This document shows positions 7,806-40,604 of a stretch of DNA of 64,000 nt, in pieces; within the stretch, counting starts at the first letter, position 1, and each line of letters starts with the position of its first letter. The notes under the pieces are model-generated. The model did not search any database, had not been told where the DNA came from, and saw nothing but the letters and a program-made list of their open reading frames with translations. Position numbers and translations under genes: made by a program. Origin of the DNA: a phage; NCBI GenBank assembly GCA_029742005.1, contig GCA_029742005.1_4113.1; one strand, written 5' to 3'.

Positions 7806-8223
7806 AATGTTAAAAATTCCACCTAAGTCGTTAACACATCTTATTGAATGTGGTGTAATATTTTCCGAAGGTGATACCTCATCATACACATTGGTCGATG
7901 AACCTTATAATTTTTCATACCAATCTTATAAAAATAATTCTAAAATTTCTTGTAGATATGCTGAAAACATATTAATAGATGTTTCGTTACATAATGTTCC
8001 GAAATTTTACATTGATATCTTTGGTGATTCTTTGACAATTCGAACATATGATTATTTTATTAATAAAGACCTCTTGAGTCTTCCAATTGAACATGATACT
8101 ATAGATTCAGAGATGTTCTTTCAGCTATCAACAGTTTACGATTTACAGGGTTTAACTGTTGAGCAGTTGAATGGAATATTTGAGATTTCACGAAACATAC
8201 GAAGCAGGAATAAAAATGTCTAA
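7795..8223 (+). CDS. hypothetical protein, C-terminal motif family
   Basis: ORF track; C-terminus SEMFFQLSTVYDLQGLTVEQLNGIFEISR. Confidence 0.5.
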   Translation: MGSEMLKIPPKSLTHLIECGVIFSEGDTSSYTLVDEPYNFSYQSYKNNSKISCRYAENILIDVSLHNVPKFYIDIFGDSLTIRTYDYFINKDLLSLPIEHDTIDSEMFFQLSTVYDLQGLTVEQLNGIFEISRNIRSRNKNV

Positions 8224-8626
8224 TATTTTAAATGAAAAAACAGTTGATGTTGTTATTGGTGTTCTTAACACCGCAACTTCATTTCAGAAGAAACACAGTG
8301 TTGTATACTTTGGTGAAGATTGTTGGCTGAACTATACTAATAATTCGTTTATAATTCGTGTAGAGGCTGATGATATTGGATTAACCGTTCAGGTAGGATG
8401 TGCCAAAACTGACAAACAAATCACTGTCATTGTTGATAAACTTACGTCTTCTTTTTATGATAGTATAGATGATTGTGAACACTATAGTTCAACATTTTAT
8501 GATACAGAAGAAGAACATTTTATGGAAAGTACTGTTCAAGAGTTAGCTATTCCATATAAGCTAATGAAAGCCGTGAGTGATTTAATTTTAAAATATAAAA
8601 AAATAGGAGTTACTAATGCAATTTAA
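8216..8626 (+). CDS. hypothetical protein, C-terminal motif family
   Basis: Internal ATG with AGGAATAAAA RBS; C-terminus EEEHFMESTVQELAIPY. Confidence 0.5.
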   Translation: MSNILNEKTVDVVIGVLNTATSFQKKHSVVYFGEDCWLNYTNNSFIIRVEADDIGLTVQVGCAKTDKQITVIVDKLTSSFYDSIDDCEHYSSTFYDTEEEHFMESTVQELAIPYKLMKAVSDLILKYKKIGVTNAI

Positions 8627-33460: not shown

Positions 33461-33492
33461 GGTTGACTTCGGTCAGCCTTTTTTGTTATGAT
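33461..33492 (+). promoter_or_regulatory. terminator-like stem-loop with embedded sigma-70-like promoter (class B cassette)
   Basis: GGTTGAC-TTCG-GTCAGCC-TTTTTTG-TTATGAT. Confidence 0.55.
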
Positions 33493-33520
33493 GTTGATAT
33501 TAACTACAGAGGATAAAGTA

Positions 33521-34162
33521 ATGACTAAGCAAGAAATATTCAAAACTTTAATTGACATTTTGCGTCCATCAAAAACTCGTTGTGCGATGGAGTTTGATAT
33601 TCCTTATGCTGAACGCGTAATCTTTCCACAAGTTAAAGCTGCTGGACTTACTTTGCTTGGAATGGGGATGTACTCTGTAGTAGTTGAACATAAAAACTAT
33701 CCTGGGCGTGCATTTAAAGTAACCACTTCACGCTGGGATGGTTTTCGTGCTTATGCAATGTACTGCATTGAAAACGCAGGAACCAAGTTTCTTCCAGTGA
33801 TCTACAGTGCAAACGAACAAGGAAACTTTGGATGGTATGAGATGGACAAGTACTATCCTATAATTAAACAAAAAAATAATTATGATGACTTTGTTAGTAC
33901 TAAAATTGGAGATTTATATTCTTATGCACATGCTGGTCAGTATGCTACTTCAGTGAATGATATGCGTGGAAATTCTGAAGAGATTGCTATTGCGACGGTC
34001 GCTGCTAACATCATGAAAGAGTTTCACGGGCGTTTTGTACCAGACATTCATTCCAGTAATGTCATGATGGATAAAGATGGCAATGTATTCATTACTGATC
34101 CTCTTTCGTGTGATGTACGTAGAGAAATACCAGTTACTGAAGAAGATCCAGTTTTTTATTGA
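33521..34162 (+). CDS. protein kinase-like fold protein
   Basis: Catalytic-loop-like DIHSSNVMMDKDGNVFITDP; start at internal ATG after AGAGGATAAAG. Confidence 0.5.
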   Translation: MTKQEIFKTLIDILRPSKTRCAMEFDIPYAERVIFPQVKAAGLTLLGMGMYSVVVEHKNYPGRAFKVTTSRWDGFRAYAMYCIENAGTKFLPVIYSANEQGNFGWYEMDKYYPIIKQKNNYDDFVSTKIGDLYSYAHAGQYATSVNDMRGNSEEIAIATVAANIMKEFHGRFVPDIHSSNVMMDKDGNVFITDPLSCDVRREIPVTEEDPVFY

Positions 34163-34508: not shown

Positions 34509-34847
34509 ATGGAACAATATTTTGAATTAATAAACAAAGTATCATTTTATGTAGTATCTTTGGTTTGGGTGTATTATATGTTTTGCTACATTATTGCATT
34601 CTTCCGATACACTACTTTATATGAACGTATCTACTATGATGCCCCAATTTCATTCTTGATGTTTTGTGCATGTACGTGGGGAATATTAGAAGTACTGATA
34701 TGTGGGTATAGTACTGATGAATTAAATCTGGTATCGGTGTTGACTGGGTTTTCATTTGTTGTTATGATAGCTGCCGTTCCAGTATGGTTGTTCTTTGGAC
34801 TAGTTCATCGCATTGATATATGGCGTTCTAATATCCCTGAAAAGTAA
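34509..34847 (+). CDS. small 3-TM membrane protein, array member
   Basis: Three hydrophobic helices; C-terminal RSNIPEK. Confidence 0.55.
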   Translation: MEQYFELINKVSFYVVSLVWVYYMFCYIIAFFRYTTLYERIYYDAPISFLMFCACTWGILEVLICGYSTDELNLVSVLTGFSFVVMIAAVPVWLFFGLVHRIDIWRSNIPEK

Positions 34848-34850
34848 GGA

Positions 34851-35198
34851 TTGGTAATGATTTATTACACTAACATGTTTGCCTATGCTGTTGCTTGCAT
34901 TTACATTGTTTACTTCTTATTCGGTGGAGTACTGTGCTTCTTTAAGTACAAAACGTTGTTCAACCGAATGTACCCAAATCATCCAATTGTAGTTGTACTT
35001 TTGATTCTTTCAGTTTCTCAAATAATCGTTGAAACTACAATGGGTATCAGTAGTGTACATTATAGTTTTGGTACTATAGTAATTATTACTATGCTTATTG
35101 CATACATTTTAGTACTTGGATATGGTATCTTTGGTAATATTGGTATGAAAATGTATCATCGAATTAAAACATTACGTGATAATCTACCGGAGCGTTGA
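34851..35198 (+). CDS. small 3-TM membrane protein, array member
   Basis: Paralog; C-terminal RDNLPER. Confidence 0.55.
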   Translation: MVMIYYTNMFAYAVACIYIVYFLFGGVLCFFKYKTLFNRMYPNHPIVVVLLILSVSQIIVETTMGISSVHYSFGTIVIITMLIAYILVLGYGIFGNIGMKMYHRIKTLRDNLPER

Positions 35199-35199
35199 T

Positions 35200-35544
35200 A
35201 TGTATAATTTGAACCTAATCTCATATATTATAACAACACTGTTTACATTCTATGCCTTTGTTGGTATAATCCTACTGTACTTTAAATTTTATAAAGTGTT
35301 TAACCGTTTCTATCCTTCAATGGAGAATGAGTTTTTCTTTGTGTTGTACGTATGTTACACATTCATGGCTACATGTTTCACTGTAGTCGATGGTGTCATC
35401 GGCATTAAAACTGCTGCACCAAATGGTAGTACGCTGGTTGCATTTATTCTTACCGGATTCCTTGCAACTTATATTGCCTTCATTGCAACATGGTCAGTGG
35501 TTGAATTTCTCTTGCGACTACGAAAGAATATGCCGAATCGATAG
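35200..35544 (+). CDS. small 3-TM membrane protein, array member
   Basis: Paralog; C-terminal RKNMPNR. Confidence 0.55.
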   Translation: MYNLNLISYIITTLFTFYAFVGIILLYFKFYKVFNRFYPSMENEFFFVLYVCYTFMATCFTVVDGVIGIKTAAPNGSTLVAFILTGFLATYIAFIATWSVVEFLLRLRKNMPNR

Positions 35545-35808: not shown

Positions 35809-36188
35809 TGCGTCAAATGCACAAAGTAACCGAGCTAAACAAGCGTCTGGTTAAACAATCAATGTTCGAGGATAAAGAGTCTTATTATAACTTTAAACGT
35901 GCAGTAGAGGCTGCTATCCACATTCAGAAGCTTAAAGAACGTGGTTGTATTATTCTGGAAAATGGTTCGGAAGTTGTAACGGATGACTTTAGTGTAGCGT
36001 TTGATGTTTCACCTGACGGGACGCTATCAATGCCCCGCTTAGGAACTGGAAACATGACTGTTTGGGTTGGCTTCACTATGGGGAATGTACCTGGTACTGT
36101 GTACGTAGATGATGCGGAATTGAAAGACAGTTTCAAAAACTTATCTTATCTTGAACCACAATACGCACATGAAATGAATTTATTTTGA
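35808..36188 (+). CDS. hypothetical protein
   Basis: ATG overlaps previous stop (TAATG). Confidence 0.5.
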   Translation: MRQMHKVTELNKRLVKQSMFEDKESYYNFKRAVEAAIHIQKLKERGCIILENGSEVVTDDFSVAFDVSPDGTLSMPRLGTGNMTVWVGFTMGNVPGTVYVDDAELKDSFKNLSYLEPQYAHEMNLF

Positions 36189-36189
36189 G

Positions 36190-36217
36190 TTGACAAACAC
36201 ATTCAGTACTGTATAAT
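36190..36217 (+). promoter_or_regulatory. sigma-70-like early promoter (class A)
   Basis: TTGACAAACACATTCAGTACTGTATAAT. Confidence 0.6.
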
Positions 36218-36264
36218 GCTTATCAAGGGGATGAATTTCTCATCCCTACAATCGAGGAACTACC

Positions 36265-36819
36265 ATGATTACTTTTAAGAAAACTGCTAACCACATCCAT
36301 GAAATCTACATTAACGGTCACAAAGCTGGCCTTCTTCGTTTACTCGCCCATCATCCTGATGTTACCGTATCTGATAATGAACCTAAAGATTGGCGTGTAT
36401 TTTTCTTTGGAAAGTACAGTGATTTTCAAGTATCAAACCTGAAGAACATTCGTTCAGTATGCACGTTAACTGAAATTAAAGAAAAGTTAGAAAAAGCATT
36501 GAAAACTAATCCAGATGGTGTTCTTCCACCTGATAACTTTGTAGAGAAAGGTTATGCATTAGCTCATTTCAAAGATGGTACTATTCAATCTATCAGTACT
36601 GAATATGAATATCAATGGACTGAGTACTTCACTTATGGATCGCGTAATACATTGATGGCTTCACGTAGTAAATTGGAAGAAGTACTGACTCGTATGAATG
36701 AACGCGAACGTCAATTTTATGACAAACCAGAAATGTGGAGTTCAACTTACATTGACCGTATTGACTATGTTATTATGACTCCAATCTTTGACACTGCTTA
36801 CTATGATTCTTTGAAATAA
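36265..36819 (+). CDS. hypothetical protein (184 aa)
   Basis: ORF track; GAGGAA RBS. Confidence 0.55.
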   Translation: MITFKKTANHIHEIYINGHKAGLLRLLAHHPDVTVSDNEPKDWRVFFFGKYSDFQVSNLKNIRSVCTLTEIKEKLEKALKTNPDGVLPPDNFVEKGYALAHFKDGTIQSISTEYEYQWTEYFTYGSRNTLMASRSKLEEVLTRMNERERQFYDKPEMWSSTYIDRIDYVIMTPIFDTAYYDSLK

Positions 36820-36830
36820 GGATAACTTAT

Positions 36831-37007
36831 ATGAAACTACGTACTCGTAATCGACTGATGGATGCACTGTACCATGAACAGCTTTCACTGAATGAAGTGA
36901 AGCGACAGTTAATGTACACATATCTGTTACCCGCTCGCATTGCAAAACAACGTGCTAAAGAATTGCTGAAAGAAGCAATCGAGTACTGGGAATCTGATTC
37001 GTACTAA
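36831..37007 (+). CDS. small basic hypothetical protein (58 aa)
   Basis: Manually read ORF below track cutoff; AAGGA RBS. Confidence 0.4.
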   Translation: MKLRTRNRLMDALYHEQLSLNEVKRQLMYTYLLPARIAKQRAKELLKEAIEYWESDSY

Positions 37008-37035
37008 TTGTCACGTTAATTAAGTGAGGCGATAA

Positions 37036-37287
37036 ATGAAAATTTTATTAGTTCTAATACTACTAATTGTTTTACCATTTACGTTAGTATCCCCTGGACT
37101 TGCATGGAATGTGTTTGTGTACTTAGTATGTACTATTGTAGTAAATGGTATCTTGTTCTTAGTTCTATTCATAAATGGAATAGGACACGGTGGAGGATGG
37201 ACCAGTACTGCTGATATTGTACATAAAACCACTATGTCTTTATTTGTAGTGTGGAATTTATTCTGGACTTGGTTTGTGTTCTTCTAA
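37036..37287 (+). CDS. small integral membrane protein
   Basis: ORF track; hydrophobic throughout. Confidence 0.5.
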   Translation: MKILLVLILLIVLPFTLVSPGLAWNVFVYLVCTIVVNGILFLVLFINGIGHGGGWTSTADIVHKTTMSLFVVWNLFWTWFVFF

Positions 37288-37299
37288 TTAAAAAAAAAT

Positions 37300-37671
37300 A
37301 TGAATATAGATTTGAAAGGTGCAACCCGAACTGTCATACTCATTGGGGAATATGCTATCAAGATTCCAACCTTTAAAAGTTGGAAGCTATTCTTAACAGG
37401 GATGATAGCTAACCTCAATGAACGTTCTTGGATGCAGTACTCCAAGCGTAGTGATAGTGGTATCTGCCCTACGTTGTGGTCATCATGTACTGGACTAGTA
37501 ACTGTACAGAAACGTTGTAAGCCAGTACAACATAGGGGTTTATTTTGGGTGGAGTTGTGTGCTTTAGCATTGAATTCAGAGTTAAGTACTGACTTCTTCT
37601 ATTCAGATGCGAAGCCAGAAAACTTTGGGTATCTGGGTGGTAAGTTAGTTAAACTTGATTATGGAGATTAA
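37300..37671 (+). CDS. minimal protein-kinase-like protein (123 aa)
   Basis: Ordered kinase-like motifs: G-rich LKGATRTVILIG, YAIKIP, DAKPENFGY, KLDYGD. Confidence 0.45.
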   Translation: MNIDLKGATRTVILIGEYAIKIPTFKSWKLFLTGMIANLNERSWMQYSKRSDSGICPTLWSSCTGLVTVQKRCKPVQHRGLFWVELCALALNSELSTDFFYSDAKPENFGYLGGKLVKLDYGD

Positions 37672-37672
37672 T

Positions 37673-38095
37673 ATGTACGCACTGTATAATAAAGAAAAGA
37701 AACAATTTGCTAAGGTTGAAAAATCGATTGATACATTTGGCATGTTTAAGTACTGTATTGTGACGGACCCATATGCTAACTTGTATTACGTTCTTGATGA
37801 CGTATCAGTACTGCAACGATTGCTTGAACGTTCCAAAAGCCAATGCCAAGGTATCCATGATGGTTCAACTTATGAAACACCTGAGTGTTCCTATGGCTAT
37901 CTGGATGGGTATGAGATTGTGAAGTTGGGTGCATTGTTGATTAATGAGGAATTTATGAAACTATGTACATGTGATGATTGTGGTAAACAAATACCAGAAA
38001 GTGAAGTATATCGTAATGAAACTGCATTCGGTGATGATGGTGACTACTGCCAGGATTGTTTTTACGAGAACCATTATGATTTTGGCGATGATTAA
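37673..38095 (+). CDS. hypothetical protein with C-terminal zinc-ribbon
   Basis: CTCDDCGKQ ... YCQDCFYENHYDF; internal ATG after GGAGA RBS. Confidence 0.5.
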   Translation: MYALYNKEKKQFAKVEKSIDTFGMFKYCIVTDPYANLYYVLDDVSVLQRLLERSKSQCQGIHDGSTYETPECSYGYLDGYEIVKLGALLINEEFMKLCTCDDCGKQIPESEVYRNETAFGDDGDYCQDCFYENHYDFGDD

Positions 38096-38101
38096 AACAA
38101 A

Positions 38102-38134
38102 GGGTTGACTTCGGTCAGCCCTTTTTGTTATAAT
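38102..38134 (+). promoter_or_regulatory. terminator-like stem-loop with embedded sigma-70-like promoter (class B cassette)
   Basis: GGGTTGAC-TTCG-GTCAGCCC, T-run, TATAAT. Confidence 0.6.
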
Positions 38135-38162
38135 CATTTCATCGAAACGAGAGGATGAATAC

Positions 38163-38678
38163 ATGACACGCATTAACTTAGTACACGTTAAAGAACTTGC
38201 TGACCAACATCTGATGGCTGAATATCGTGAACTCCCACGTGTATTTGGTGCTGTACAAAAACACGTTCAAGCACGTAAGCGTGTACGTGATTTCAAAATT
38301 AACAGTACTTACCTGTTAGGTTCAGGTCATGTAACATTCTTCTACAACAAGTTATTGTACTTACAGAAGCGTCATATTGATATTGTTAACGAATGTTTGC
38401 GTCGTGGTATGAAGATTCAAAACACTGAAGTAAACGACATTAGCGGATTCCCTGCTGAGTTTTGTAATGACTACGTACCATCGGAGTCAGAGATTAAAAT
38501 GTCTCGTGAGCGTTTGATTGAGAAGCTACAGATGAAGCCTACGTGGTATAAATTTACTGACGTTGAACGCCCACAGTATGTTAAAGATATGCAGGACGTA
38601 AGTAGTAATATAGAATCTAGTACTGATTTGTTCGACGAAATTGAAGAACAAATCAAAGATGAAATGAATAATTATTAA
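38163..38678 (+). CDS. denV: endonuclease V, pyrimidine-dimer DNA glycosylase
   Basis: N-terminal two-thirds closely matches T4 DenV as recalled from memory (MTRINL...[18 protein letters not shown]...KRVRDFKI...GHVTFFY); extra acidic C-terminal tail. Confidence 0.85.
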
Positions 38679-38685
38679 AGAAAAG

Positions 38686-38718
38686 GGTTGACTTCGGTCA
38701 GCCCTTTTTGCTATAATT
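38686..38718 (+). promoter_or_regulatory. terminator-like stem-loop with embedded sigma-70-like promoter (class B cassette)
   Basis: GGGTTGAC-TTCG-GTCAGCCC, TTTTTG, CTATAAT. Confidence 0.6.
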
Positions 38719-38745
38719 ATTTCATCAACTGATGAGGATAACGAA

Positions 38746-39516
38746 ATGACCAGAGAAGCACGTAGCATTCAAATCCAGAAAAACTTCAACTCCATGATGG
38801 TTGCTCTTGAGTGTTTGCTCGATGATAGCAGTACTGTAAAAAGTATGGTTGTCAGCGGTGCACCTGGTGTTGGTAAGACTTACACCCTGTCACAACGCCT
38901 CCAGAAAGCTCATGACGCAGCAGAATGGAACGTAGCTACTATCAGTGGTAAGATGACTACTCTTGCTCTGTATGAAGTTCTGTACAAGAATCGTCACAGC
39001 ACTAACGTATTAGTACTGGATGATATGGACAGCATCTTTGATTCAGAAGACGGTATGAACCTGCTCAAAGCAGTACTGGACAGCGGTAAACGTACTGTGT
39101 CTTACATGACTAGCTCTAAGTACTTAACTACCAACGGTATCCCTAACAGCTTTGATTTTAACGGTCGTATCGTATTCATTACTAACAAAGATTTAGCACT
39201 GAATGCTAAAGCTAAAACCAAAATGTCTGCTCACTATGCTGCTCTTATGTCTCGCTCTGTGTATGTTGACTTACAGATCCAGACTAAAAGCGATATCATG
39301 ATTCACATTGAAAACGTAATGAACAAGACCAACATCCTGTCAACTAAAGGTGTTAATAGTAATGGTAGTAAAGCAATCCTGAATTGGATGCTGAAACATG
39401 AAGATGCACTTCGTGCCCCTTCACTGCGTATGCCTCTGTTGATTTCAGCAGTATACAACAACAACCCGTATGATTGGGAAGAGCAGTGCGAAAACTTGTT
39501 CCTTGAGAAAATTTAA
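38746..39516 (+). CDS. P-loop NTPase (Walker A GAPGVGKT)
   Basis: Walker A motif VVSGAPGVGKTYT and Walker B-like VLVLDDMD. Confidence 0.6.
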   Translation: MTREARSIQIQKNFNSMMVALECLLDDSSTVKSMVVSGAPGVGKTYTLSQRLQKAHDAAEWNVATISGKMTTLALYEVLYKNRHSTNVLVLDDMDSIFDSEDGMNLLKAVLDSGKRTVSYMTSSKYLTTNGIPNSFDFNGRIVFITNKDLALNAKAKTKMSAHYAALMSRSVYVDLQIQTKSDIMIHIENVMNKTNILSTKGVNSNGSKAILNWMLKHEDALRAPSLRMPLLISAVYNNNPYDWEEQCENLFLEKI

Positions 39517-39583
39517 TTACATGTATTGACAGTACTACACTATGGTAGTACTATAACTTAATATTCACCACCGGAGATACGAT

Positions 39584-39922
39584 ATGCTTGAGTTTTTTAA
39601 TTCAGATACAATGCTTAGTATTACTTTGATTTATCTGTTTGGTTTTTTCTTTTATCATGCACTAGTTGTAGTACTATGGTATTTTAAAAAGAAAATCGTT
39701 TTCAAACTGTATCCTGATGGAAACATTTCACTACTTCTTTTCACTATTATCCAAGGTATGTTTGCAATTGTTGGTCTTATCGCACACTTAATTTATTGTG
39801 CTAATCCACAGTTGAACTCAATATCACAATATATTGTATTCCTTGGATTACTAATTTGGGTGCTGATATACTTGTTTAATCTCATCATTAATGGTAGAGC
39901 AAAAATTCGTGGGGACTTCTAA
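39584..39922 (+). CDS. small 3-TM membrane protein, array member
   Basis: Paralog of 34509-35544 family. Confidence 0.55.
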   Translation: MLEFFNSDTMLSITLIYLFGFFFYHALVVVLWYFKKKIVFKLYPDGNISLLLFTIIQGMFAIVGLIAHLIYCANPQLNSISQYIVFLGLLIWVLIYLFNLIINGRAKIRGDF

Positions 39923-40269
39923 TGTTTGAATCTTATCTTGAGTTTTTAAAGAGTAGTTCTGTTGCACATTCAATTGCAGGGATTATTCTAACAGGTTATG
40001 TAACATTTTGGGTAGTTATGTTTCTAGGATGGTATTTTAAACGACAATTCTATAAGCGTAATGGTGAAGATTTTATGAATTCTTTCATTAATCAATCGTT
40101 GTTTGCATCAACATTGATAGCATGTATTGTAGCAACACTCACAGGAAAGGTACTGCCAGCATTCTCCGCAGTTTACGGTACATTGGGTATGATATGTGTA
40201 GTTTTTTACTTGACCATTAAACTTTGTTGTGTTATGATTGAACTTCGAAACAAGATACCGGAGGAATGA
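39922..40269 (+). CDS. small 3-TM membrane protein, array member
   Basis: Coupled start; C-terminal RNKIPEE. Confidence 0.55.
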   Translation: MFESYLEFLKSSSVAHSIAGIILTGYVTFWVVMFLGWYFKRQFYKRNGEDFMNSFINQSLFASTLIACIVATLTGKVLPAFSAVYGTLGMICVVFYLTIKLCCVMIELRNKIPEE

Positions 40270-40604
40270 TGGAATATTTTTTACACTTACTGCCGTGGTA
40301 TATGAAAGTTAGTACTATGTACTATATTCTTAGTGCTGGATTCTACTTTCTGATGTGGTTCTTCAAACGACCAATTTCAGTATTCATCTCTGATAACATG
40401 CTGCAATTAAAATTACACGCATGGTTTTTTATGGCGATGTTTATGCCTATTATTCACTACTCAATGATTAGTAGAGGTTTACGTTCTAATGGTGAACCAA
40501 TTATATTAGTATTCTATTGGGGTTCAACTATTGCATATGTAAGTTTGTTGTTGATCCCAGCCGTTCATAAATTACGTGCTAAAGTTCCTGATGTGAGGTA
40601 CTAA
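40266..40604 (+). CDS. small 3-TM membrane protein, array member
   Basis: Overlapping ATGA junction. Confidence 0.55.
   Translation: MMEYFLHLLPWYMKVSTMYYILSAGFYFLMWFFKRPISVFISDNMLQLKLHAWFFMAMFMPIIHYSMISRGLRSNGEPIILVFYWGSTIAYVSLLLIPAVHKLRAKVPDVRY

Follow-up and report, generated by a model that had tools for sequence, protein, structure and literature searches.

A 123-residue jumbo phage protein as a candidate drastically reduced protein kinase

We analyzed a 64,000-nucleotide window of phage DNA (contig GCA_029742005.1_4113.1, assembly GCA_029742005.1), which comes from an Asteriusvirus-type (121Q/PBECO4/fEgEco12-like) Escherichia coli jumbo phage and is 97% identical to phage fEgEco12 over positions 36000-39600. 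An open reading frame (ORF) at 37300-37671 encodes a protein of 123 amino acids (aa), hereafter the mini-kinase, which very probably has the kinase fold and is homologous to kinases. It comprises Hanks subdomains I-VII only (β1-3, αC, β4-5, αE, catalytic loop, β7-8 and DFG), and the activation segment, the P+1 loop, the APE motif and helices αF-αI are absent. The best overall explanation, to which we assign a probability of about 0.55, is that the mini-kinase is an early-expressed, catalytically competent phage phosphotransferase of low specificity that would serve host takeover or counter-defence. This explanation draws on the sequence, a predicted structure and the analogy with T7K, the gp0.7 kinase of phage T7.

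A short gene under purifying selection

The ORF is a real protein-coding gene under strong purifying selection, as judged from its low ratio of nonsynonymous to synonymous substitutions (dN/dS) and from a stop codon shared by all orthologues. Across six orthologues, dN/dS is 0.03-0.17 (Nei-Gojobori); dS reaches at most 0.65 inside Asteriusvirus and 1.8 in the comparison with phage EJP2. The stop codon after ...LDYGD is kept in all six, at DNA identities from 97% down to 67%. Orthologues in about 35 related phages are labelled hypothetical protein. The only PHROG match is phrog_4301 (E 9e-44), annotated as "unknown function", and the ORF matches no Pfam (E <= 1), NCBIfam or PADLOC model. Salmonella phages SD-1_S14, SD-2_S15 and SD-6_S16 and Escherichia virus TH47 carry 5'-truncated copies, an example being a 102-aa remnant that matches the C-terminal half alone.

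A catalytic core that ends at the DFG-equivalent motif

The original prediction had noted four kinase-like segments in canonical order, and all four are present in the translation in that order (Table 1). They rank among the most conserved columns when 256 diverse members of the family are aligned (the basis of all conservation values given here), and their order is thus not coincidental. The first segment, LKGATRTVILIG (residues 5-16), had been described as glycine-rich. A conserved loop does lie there, preceded by only 6 residues, but it has a single conserved glycine and follows the pattern G-x-T-R-x-V (G7 98%, T9 89%, R10 99%, V12 95%) instead of GxGxxG. In the YAIKIP segment, the VAIK-type lysine K21 is kept in 99% and P23 in 97% of members. 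The following αC-like helix contains an invariant glutamate that had been overlooked, E41 (100%, in ANLNER), along with G34 (98%), N38 (98%) and F31 (95%). E41 is the predicted salt-bridge partner of K21.

The C-terminal half carries the segments DAKPENFGY (residues 103-111) and KLDYGD (residues 118-123), the latter forming the C-terminus. Within the first, K105 is conserved in 87% and G110 in 97% of members. The residue before D103 is serine or variable, and no His-Arg pair precedes the aspartate, which places the mini-kinase in the non-RD type. A non-RD catalytic loop is in keeping with the lack of an activation loop that could be phosphorylated. In the DFG-equivalent, D120 is conserved in 98%, Y121 in 82% and G122 in 83% of members. 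The chain ends two or three residues after D120 in 201 of the 256 members (79%) and within five residues in 225. The few longer members (205-267 aa) are extended at the N- or C-terminus by low-complexity tails that have neither APE nor DxWxxG motifs; among them, Kc263 (267 aa), P0220 and P0253 were considered as full-length kinases and rejected, their tails lacking C-lobe motifs. The match to the 1,073-aa protein P0140 is a repeat artefact. With a family-wide catalytic core and a chain ending at the DFG-like motif, the suggestion of a minimal kinase is supported.

The AlphaFold2 model, built from a 91-sequence alignment, has a mean pLDDT of 94.9 and a pTM of 0.84. It shows strands β1-β2-β3, a long αC, β4-β5, an αE-like helix and a short helix, followed by a C-terminal part in which the catalytic loop and D120 flank two strands. 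This is the arrangement of the protein-kinase-like (PKL) fold, with a β-rich N-lobe in which the β3 lysine and the αC glutamate face a sheet bearing the catalytic and Mg-binding loops. The sequence likewise has a D-x-x-x-x-N loop and a downstream Mg-binding aspartate in the canonical register. Foldseek matched the model to Lpg2603, TTK, WbdD and RIOK2 with a probability of about 1 and TMq values of 0.5-0.66. The nearest structures in BFVD are other small phage proteins, a few of them named "protein kinase domain-containing".

Sequence comparisons pointed weakly in the same direction. The best PDB match of the family profile was TTK (E 0.18-1; phmmer, hmmsearch), whose sDlKPaN loop aligns with the catalytic loop of the family. 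Aligned by hhalign to a single protein kinase A (PKA) sequence, which served as a register check only, residues 96-123 alone aligned (E 0.026), with D103, K105, N108 and D120 at the positions of PKA D166, K168, N171 and D184. A DxKPEN loop followed by a ...K-L-D-Y-G pattern is of the Ser/Thr eukaryotic protein kinase (ePK) type, not of the RIO, Bud32 or APH type. None of the 91 members matched Pfam Pkinase, the only sub-threshold matches being to ABC1 (7 members) and PIP49_C (5 members).

On its outer face, the αE-like helix carries mostly charged residues (E/K/R) at positions 87-88 across the family. The surface that αF covers in larger kinases would thus be exposed to solvent, which suggests that the mini-kinase domain is autonomous.

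A widespread and mobile phage family

To analyze the distribution of the family, an exhaustive profile search was performed, which identified at least 1,214 cluster representatives (50% identity) at E <= 1e-3, of which 640 reach E <= 1e-10; with few exceptions they are 110-135 aa long. By tblastn, 118 phage records of widely differing lineages were found to contain full-length homologues of about 120 aa. Among them are jumbo phages of Escherichia, Erwinia, Aeromonas, Klebsiella, Ralstonia and Pseudomonas hosts, a handful of T4-like phages (JS10, IME341 and PaulHMueller/Bas45 of the BASEL collection), the N4-like phages phi G17 and Moonfish, and Vequintavirus-like and Felix-O1-like phages. Distant homologues (~30% identity) occur in M6/PaMx11-type Pseudomonas siphophages. 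Mini-kinases of unrelated coliphage lineages share 74-79% identity (74% between T4-like and N4-like phages), which indicates horizontal transfer of the gene between phage lineages.

All copies found in bacterial assemblies lie inside prophages. In Salmonella lambdoid prophages the gene is located between the Rz lysis gene and the terminase gene nu1, and in an Aquimarina prophage directly upstream of the terminase gene. In a marine prophage, a homologue at 8001-8360 shares a late structural operon with an Acb2/Tad1-hairpin gene of the anti-CBASS/anti-Thoeris sponge family (contigs L008 4318-4650 and L010 4348-4650). The presence of this gene beside the mini-kinase homologue suggests that the operon collects counter-defence morons. 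The flanking genes of the six lineages examined have no pairwise similarity to one another, so that the mini-kinase gene appears to be a stand-alone accessory gene. The same result excludes a C-lobe supplied in trans by a conserved partner gene.

The family HMM found no paralogue in the window. Shewanella phage SXP01 and Aeromonas phages PS1/PS2 and AerS_266 each have two matching places and thus appear to hold paralogous copies. A "virion structural protein" label in SXP01 belongs to the adjacent coding sequence. BFVD holds many phage proteins of 140-235 aa with a reduced kinase fold (in CBB, RaK2, Lacusarx and D6), and phages may therefore encode a continuum of miniaturized kinases. Homologues are labelled Ser/Thr kinase in three GenBank records by independent annotators, and full-text literature searches turned up no account of the family. 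As far as could be found, the kinase resemblance was spotted by annotators and has apparently not been studied so far.

Genomic context and putative early expression

The mini-kinase gene is one of five tightly packed plus-strand ORFs (36265-38095) downstream of a promoter that matches the sigma-70 consensus at 12 of 12 positions and is the likely start of the unit, and neighbouring genes are preceded by similar promoter modules. This arrangement suggests early transcription by host RNA polymerase. The strong terminator-like hairpin that follows the downstream ORF closes the unit and overlaps the next promoter, upstream of a denV-like gene.

The Shine-Dalgarno sequence of the downstream ORF is GGAG at 37663-37666. 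Its product matches phrog_8563 over residues 1-87, from profile position 2, and has a Cys-rich tail. Compared with L007 (7671-8366), it consists of 88 aa homologous to fEgEco12 g569 and a CxxC...CxxC tail. The fEgEco12 equivalent has 89 aa, with an HNH endonuclease gene inserted behind it, and the site looks like a hot spot for the insertion or replacement of mobile nucleases.

Farther downstream on the plus strand, 38163-38678 encodes a pyrimidine-dimer DNA glycosylase of the DenV type that carries an acidic extension at its C-terminus (Pfam Pyr_excise 9e-15, phrog_1183 9e-59), and 38746-39516 encodes a 256-aa P-loop AAA/STAND-like NTPase (phrog_1250, function unknown, 7e-103). Near-consensus sigma-70 promoters precede both (38105-38134 and 38688-38717). 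Two tandem plus-strand arrays of small predicted membrane proteins of about 112-122 aa lie at 34509-35544 and 39584-40604. Their products have similar basic C-terminal motifs (...R.NIPEK, ...NLPER, ...NMPNR, ...KIPEE, ...KVPDVRY), and the arrays resemble families of paralogues on either side of the kinase/DenV region.

Table 1 Features in and around the mini-kinase gene
Feature	Position	Strand	Details
T7 gp0.7 (T7K) homologue	33488-34162	+	diverged, 224 aa; phrog_15752 2e-97, phrog_2828 8e-17
Sigma-70 consensus promoter	36190..36217	+	TTGACA-16-TATAAT, 12/12; consensus match, function inferred
Mini-kinase ORF	37300..37671	+	ATG 37300, TAA 37669-37671, 123 aa; phrog_4301 member
Nucleotide-binding loop (β1-loop-β2)	37312..37335	+	LKGATRTV, residues 5-12; strands E2-4 and E10-15 in model
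β3 with predicted ATP-anchoring lysine	37351..37368	+	YAIKIP, residues 18-23; K21
αC-like helix	37381..37428	+	residues 28-43, with F31, G34, N38, E41; model and alignment
αE-like helix	37534..37575	+	residues 79-92; model and alignment
Catalytic loop	37606..37623	+	D103-A-K105-P-E-N108, Ser/Thr-kinase-type DxKPxN; aligned to TTK and PKA loops
DFG-equivalent	37657..37665	+	D120-Y-G122, putative Mg-binding Asp; one further residue, then stop
Downstream ORF	37673..38095	+	140 aa, translationally coupled; starts 1 nt past the mini-kinase stop
Intrinsic-terminator-like hairpin	38099..38124	+	11-bp stem and T-run; after the downstream ORF

Proposed function and alternative explanations

We propose that the mini-kinase is a stand-alone, horizontally mobile phage accessory protein with a drastically reduced protein-kinase-like domain. 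All residues that Mg-ATP binding and γ-phosphate transfer require are kept: Mg-ATP would be bound through the K21-E41 pair, N108 and D120, and the γ-phosphate would be transferred by D103 and K105. Since the protein has no activation loop and no P+1/αG platform and is of the non-RD type, such a kinase would probably be constitutively active and show little sequence specificity. Its DxKPxN loop suggests that Ser/Thr proteins are the substrates, and by analogy with T7K, protein phosphorylation would serve host takeover or counter-defence. We consider it fairly probable that the mini-kinase is an active phosphotransferase. That its substrates are proteins is a tentative assignment that could well prove wrong, and an anti-defence role is possible but rather doubtful.

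Several observations weigh against this proposal. The original prediction had made its reading depend on a motif order beyond chance and on a kinase-like profile match; the motif order held up, but at the sequence-profile level no kinase family was matched significantly in Pfam, NCBIfam, PADLOC or PDB. We know of no active kinase that lacks the whole αF helix, and the solved chains of OspG, NleH, HopBF1 and Ark1 still have 160-176 aa. The catalytic loop is not uniform, with position 103 being D in 75% and E in 25% of members and position 108 being N in 76% and S in 21%; given this divergence, in the Kc263 subgroup as well as in the E103/S108 members, the chemistry may vary by subfamily. The close relatives SD-1_S14, SD-2_S15 and TH47 have lost part of the gene through 5' deletions and hold truncated copies, which argues that it is dispensable and decaying in some lineages. 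The early timing is read from matches to the promoter consensus alone, and such matches are no more numerous in the region than chance would give. The anti-defence role is proposed purely by analogy.

A different substrate class would also be conceivable for an active enzyme. Without a C-lobe the cleft is open and bare and would fit a non-protein substrate, such as a nucleotide-derived immune signal, a metabolite or, as for Ark1, an RNA 2'-OH. The lysine of the D-x-K-x-x-N loop is a hallmark of Ser/Thr protein kinases that APH, choline, RIO and Bud32-type kinases do not have, and the 87% conservation of K105 counts against a small-molecule kinase. Moreover, small-molecule ePK-like kinases form their substrate pocket from C-lobe inserts, which are absent here, and the adjacency of rnlB to the mini-kinase gene is confined to one lineage. 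We therefore regard a small-molecule or nucleic-acid kinase as unlikely. One specific version, a link to thymidine hypermodification through phage PaMx11, is ruled out: 5-HMUDK, the kinase acting on 5-hmU DNA, is the P-loop protein PaMx11 gp49, encoded in the aGPT-Pplase cluster (PMC8989533), whereas the mini-kinase homologue is PaMx11_73, which lies at another locus and has another fold.

A further alternative is that the protein only binds nucleotides, as a pseudokinase, sponge or decoy that sequesters a nucleotide or blocks a host protein. Its very small size and missing substrate-binding platform would suit such a role, phage sponges of similar size exist, an Acb2/Tad1-type gene lies in the late operon of one homologue, and in about 25% of members the catalytic loop is altered by D-to-E and N-to-S changes. 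In pseudokinases, on the other hand, one or more of the VAIK, HRD and DFG motifs is typically lost, and it would be unexpected for pure binding that the catalytic residues, among them the base (D/E103), K105 and both metal ligands, are all retained near-universally, making this explanation improbable. An N-terminal fragment of a longer kinase, split from 37673-38095 or borrowing its C-lobe from the adjacent gene, was also considered because the next ORF begins directly after the stop codon and some members are longer. A check for a frameshift joining the two ORFs, which the original prediction had called for, did not bear this out. The stop codon is conserved among the orthologues, the common C-terminus holds across the family, and the tails of the longer variants contribute no C-lobe. 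The downstream protein belongs to a separate PHROG from its first residue, its content varies among close relatives, and the neighbours are unrelated between phage lineages. These results rule out a split gene, and the residual probability of such a fragment is negligible.

Returning to the active phosphotransferase, it is tempting to speculate that the mini-kinase is an autonomous kinase of about 120 residues, the smallest of its fold, which phages of many lineages would use as a promiscuous and constitutive "phospho-bomb" against host defence or metabolism. The T7K strategy would then have been invented twice, independently. We consider this strong form unlikely overall, but its consequences would be considerable. 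Such a kinase would work without the αF-αI scaffold, which current theory, with its hydrophobic spines anchored on αF, holds to be indispensable. If the mini-kinase is active, the size limit below which no protein-kinase fold is found would fall to about 120 aa, from about 160-170 aa in OspG and NleH, the minimal kinases accepted so far, and subdomains I-VII alone would suffice for ATP binding and phosphotransfer, which would matter for models of how kinases are built and for miniature kinase design. The family, spread over jumbo, T4-like, N4-like, siphophage and temperate phages, is a mobile candidate host-manipulation enzyme that current annotation resources have missed.

Comparison with known kinases

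T7K is a hyper-promiscuous phage kinase that broadly disarms bacterial defences, and diverged T7K homologues have been described in jumbophages including "Escherichia phage G17" in a 2026 study, whose survey of kinases in the BASEL collection reported T7K homologues and P1 Doc only (PMC13645617). The BASEL phage Bas45 encodes a member of the mini-kinase family. The mini-kinase itself is not the jumbophage G17 T7K homologue; that gene corresponds to ORF 33488-34162, which presumably belongs to the same T7K clade (PMC13645617). T7K matches the window at 33641-34150 (tblastn, E 1e-6). The protein encoded by this ORF has DIHSSN and ITDPL motifs, ends about 20 aa past the DFG-equivalent and has no shut-off domain. 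By blastp the mini-kinase matches T7K with E = 33 only, and its family HMM finds none of T7K, ORF 33488-34162 and PKA. On sequence grounds, two unrelated reduced kinases are thus encoded within 4 kb, the T7K homologue lying 3 kb upstream, which offers a natural system in which to compare redundancy and specialization of phage kinases. T7K (PHROG 2828/15752) is likewise a reduced, phage-encoded kinase and is early-expressed. It has DPV instead of DFG and a D-x-H-x-x-N loop, whereas the mini-kinase has DYG and DxKPxN, and the kinase domain of T7K, estimated from the T7K sequence, is about twice as long.

NleH and OspG are active kinases without subdomains VIII-XI (PMC12756638), and the mini-kinase fits the description of a minimal effector kinase given there. 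About 40-50 of the residues in the solved chains of OspG, NleH1-2 and HopBF1 are absent from the mini-kinase, which ends at DFG+3. PDB sequence and profile searches with the mini-kinase found neither OspG nor NleH. Both are secreted type III effectors that act in eukaryotic cells, OspG being activated by E2~ubiquitin, whereas members of the mini-kinase family are phage proteins in bacteria.

The remaining families are more distant. In comparison with Hanks kinases such as TTK/MPS1 and PknB, the mini-kinase has no GxGxxG, neither the His nor the Arg of HRD, and no subdomains VIII-XI, and it does not reach the Pfam gathering thresholds of the ePK models PF00069 and PF07714. The catalytic loops of RIO, Bud32 and Ark1 (HxDLSxxN or HGDLTxxN) have no lysine, and their metal motif is IDxxQ or similar. 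These proteins, of 170-250 aa, continue with helices past the DFG motif, where the mini-kinase ends, and at E <= 1 the Pfam RIO1 and Kdo models matched none of the 91 members. The mini-kinase is thus not a member of the ePK (Pfam), OspG/NleH, T7K or RIO/Kdo families and is best described as an extreme new variant in the protein-kinase-like superfamily that shares its catalytic core with all of them.
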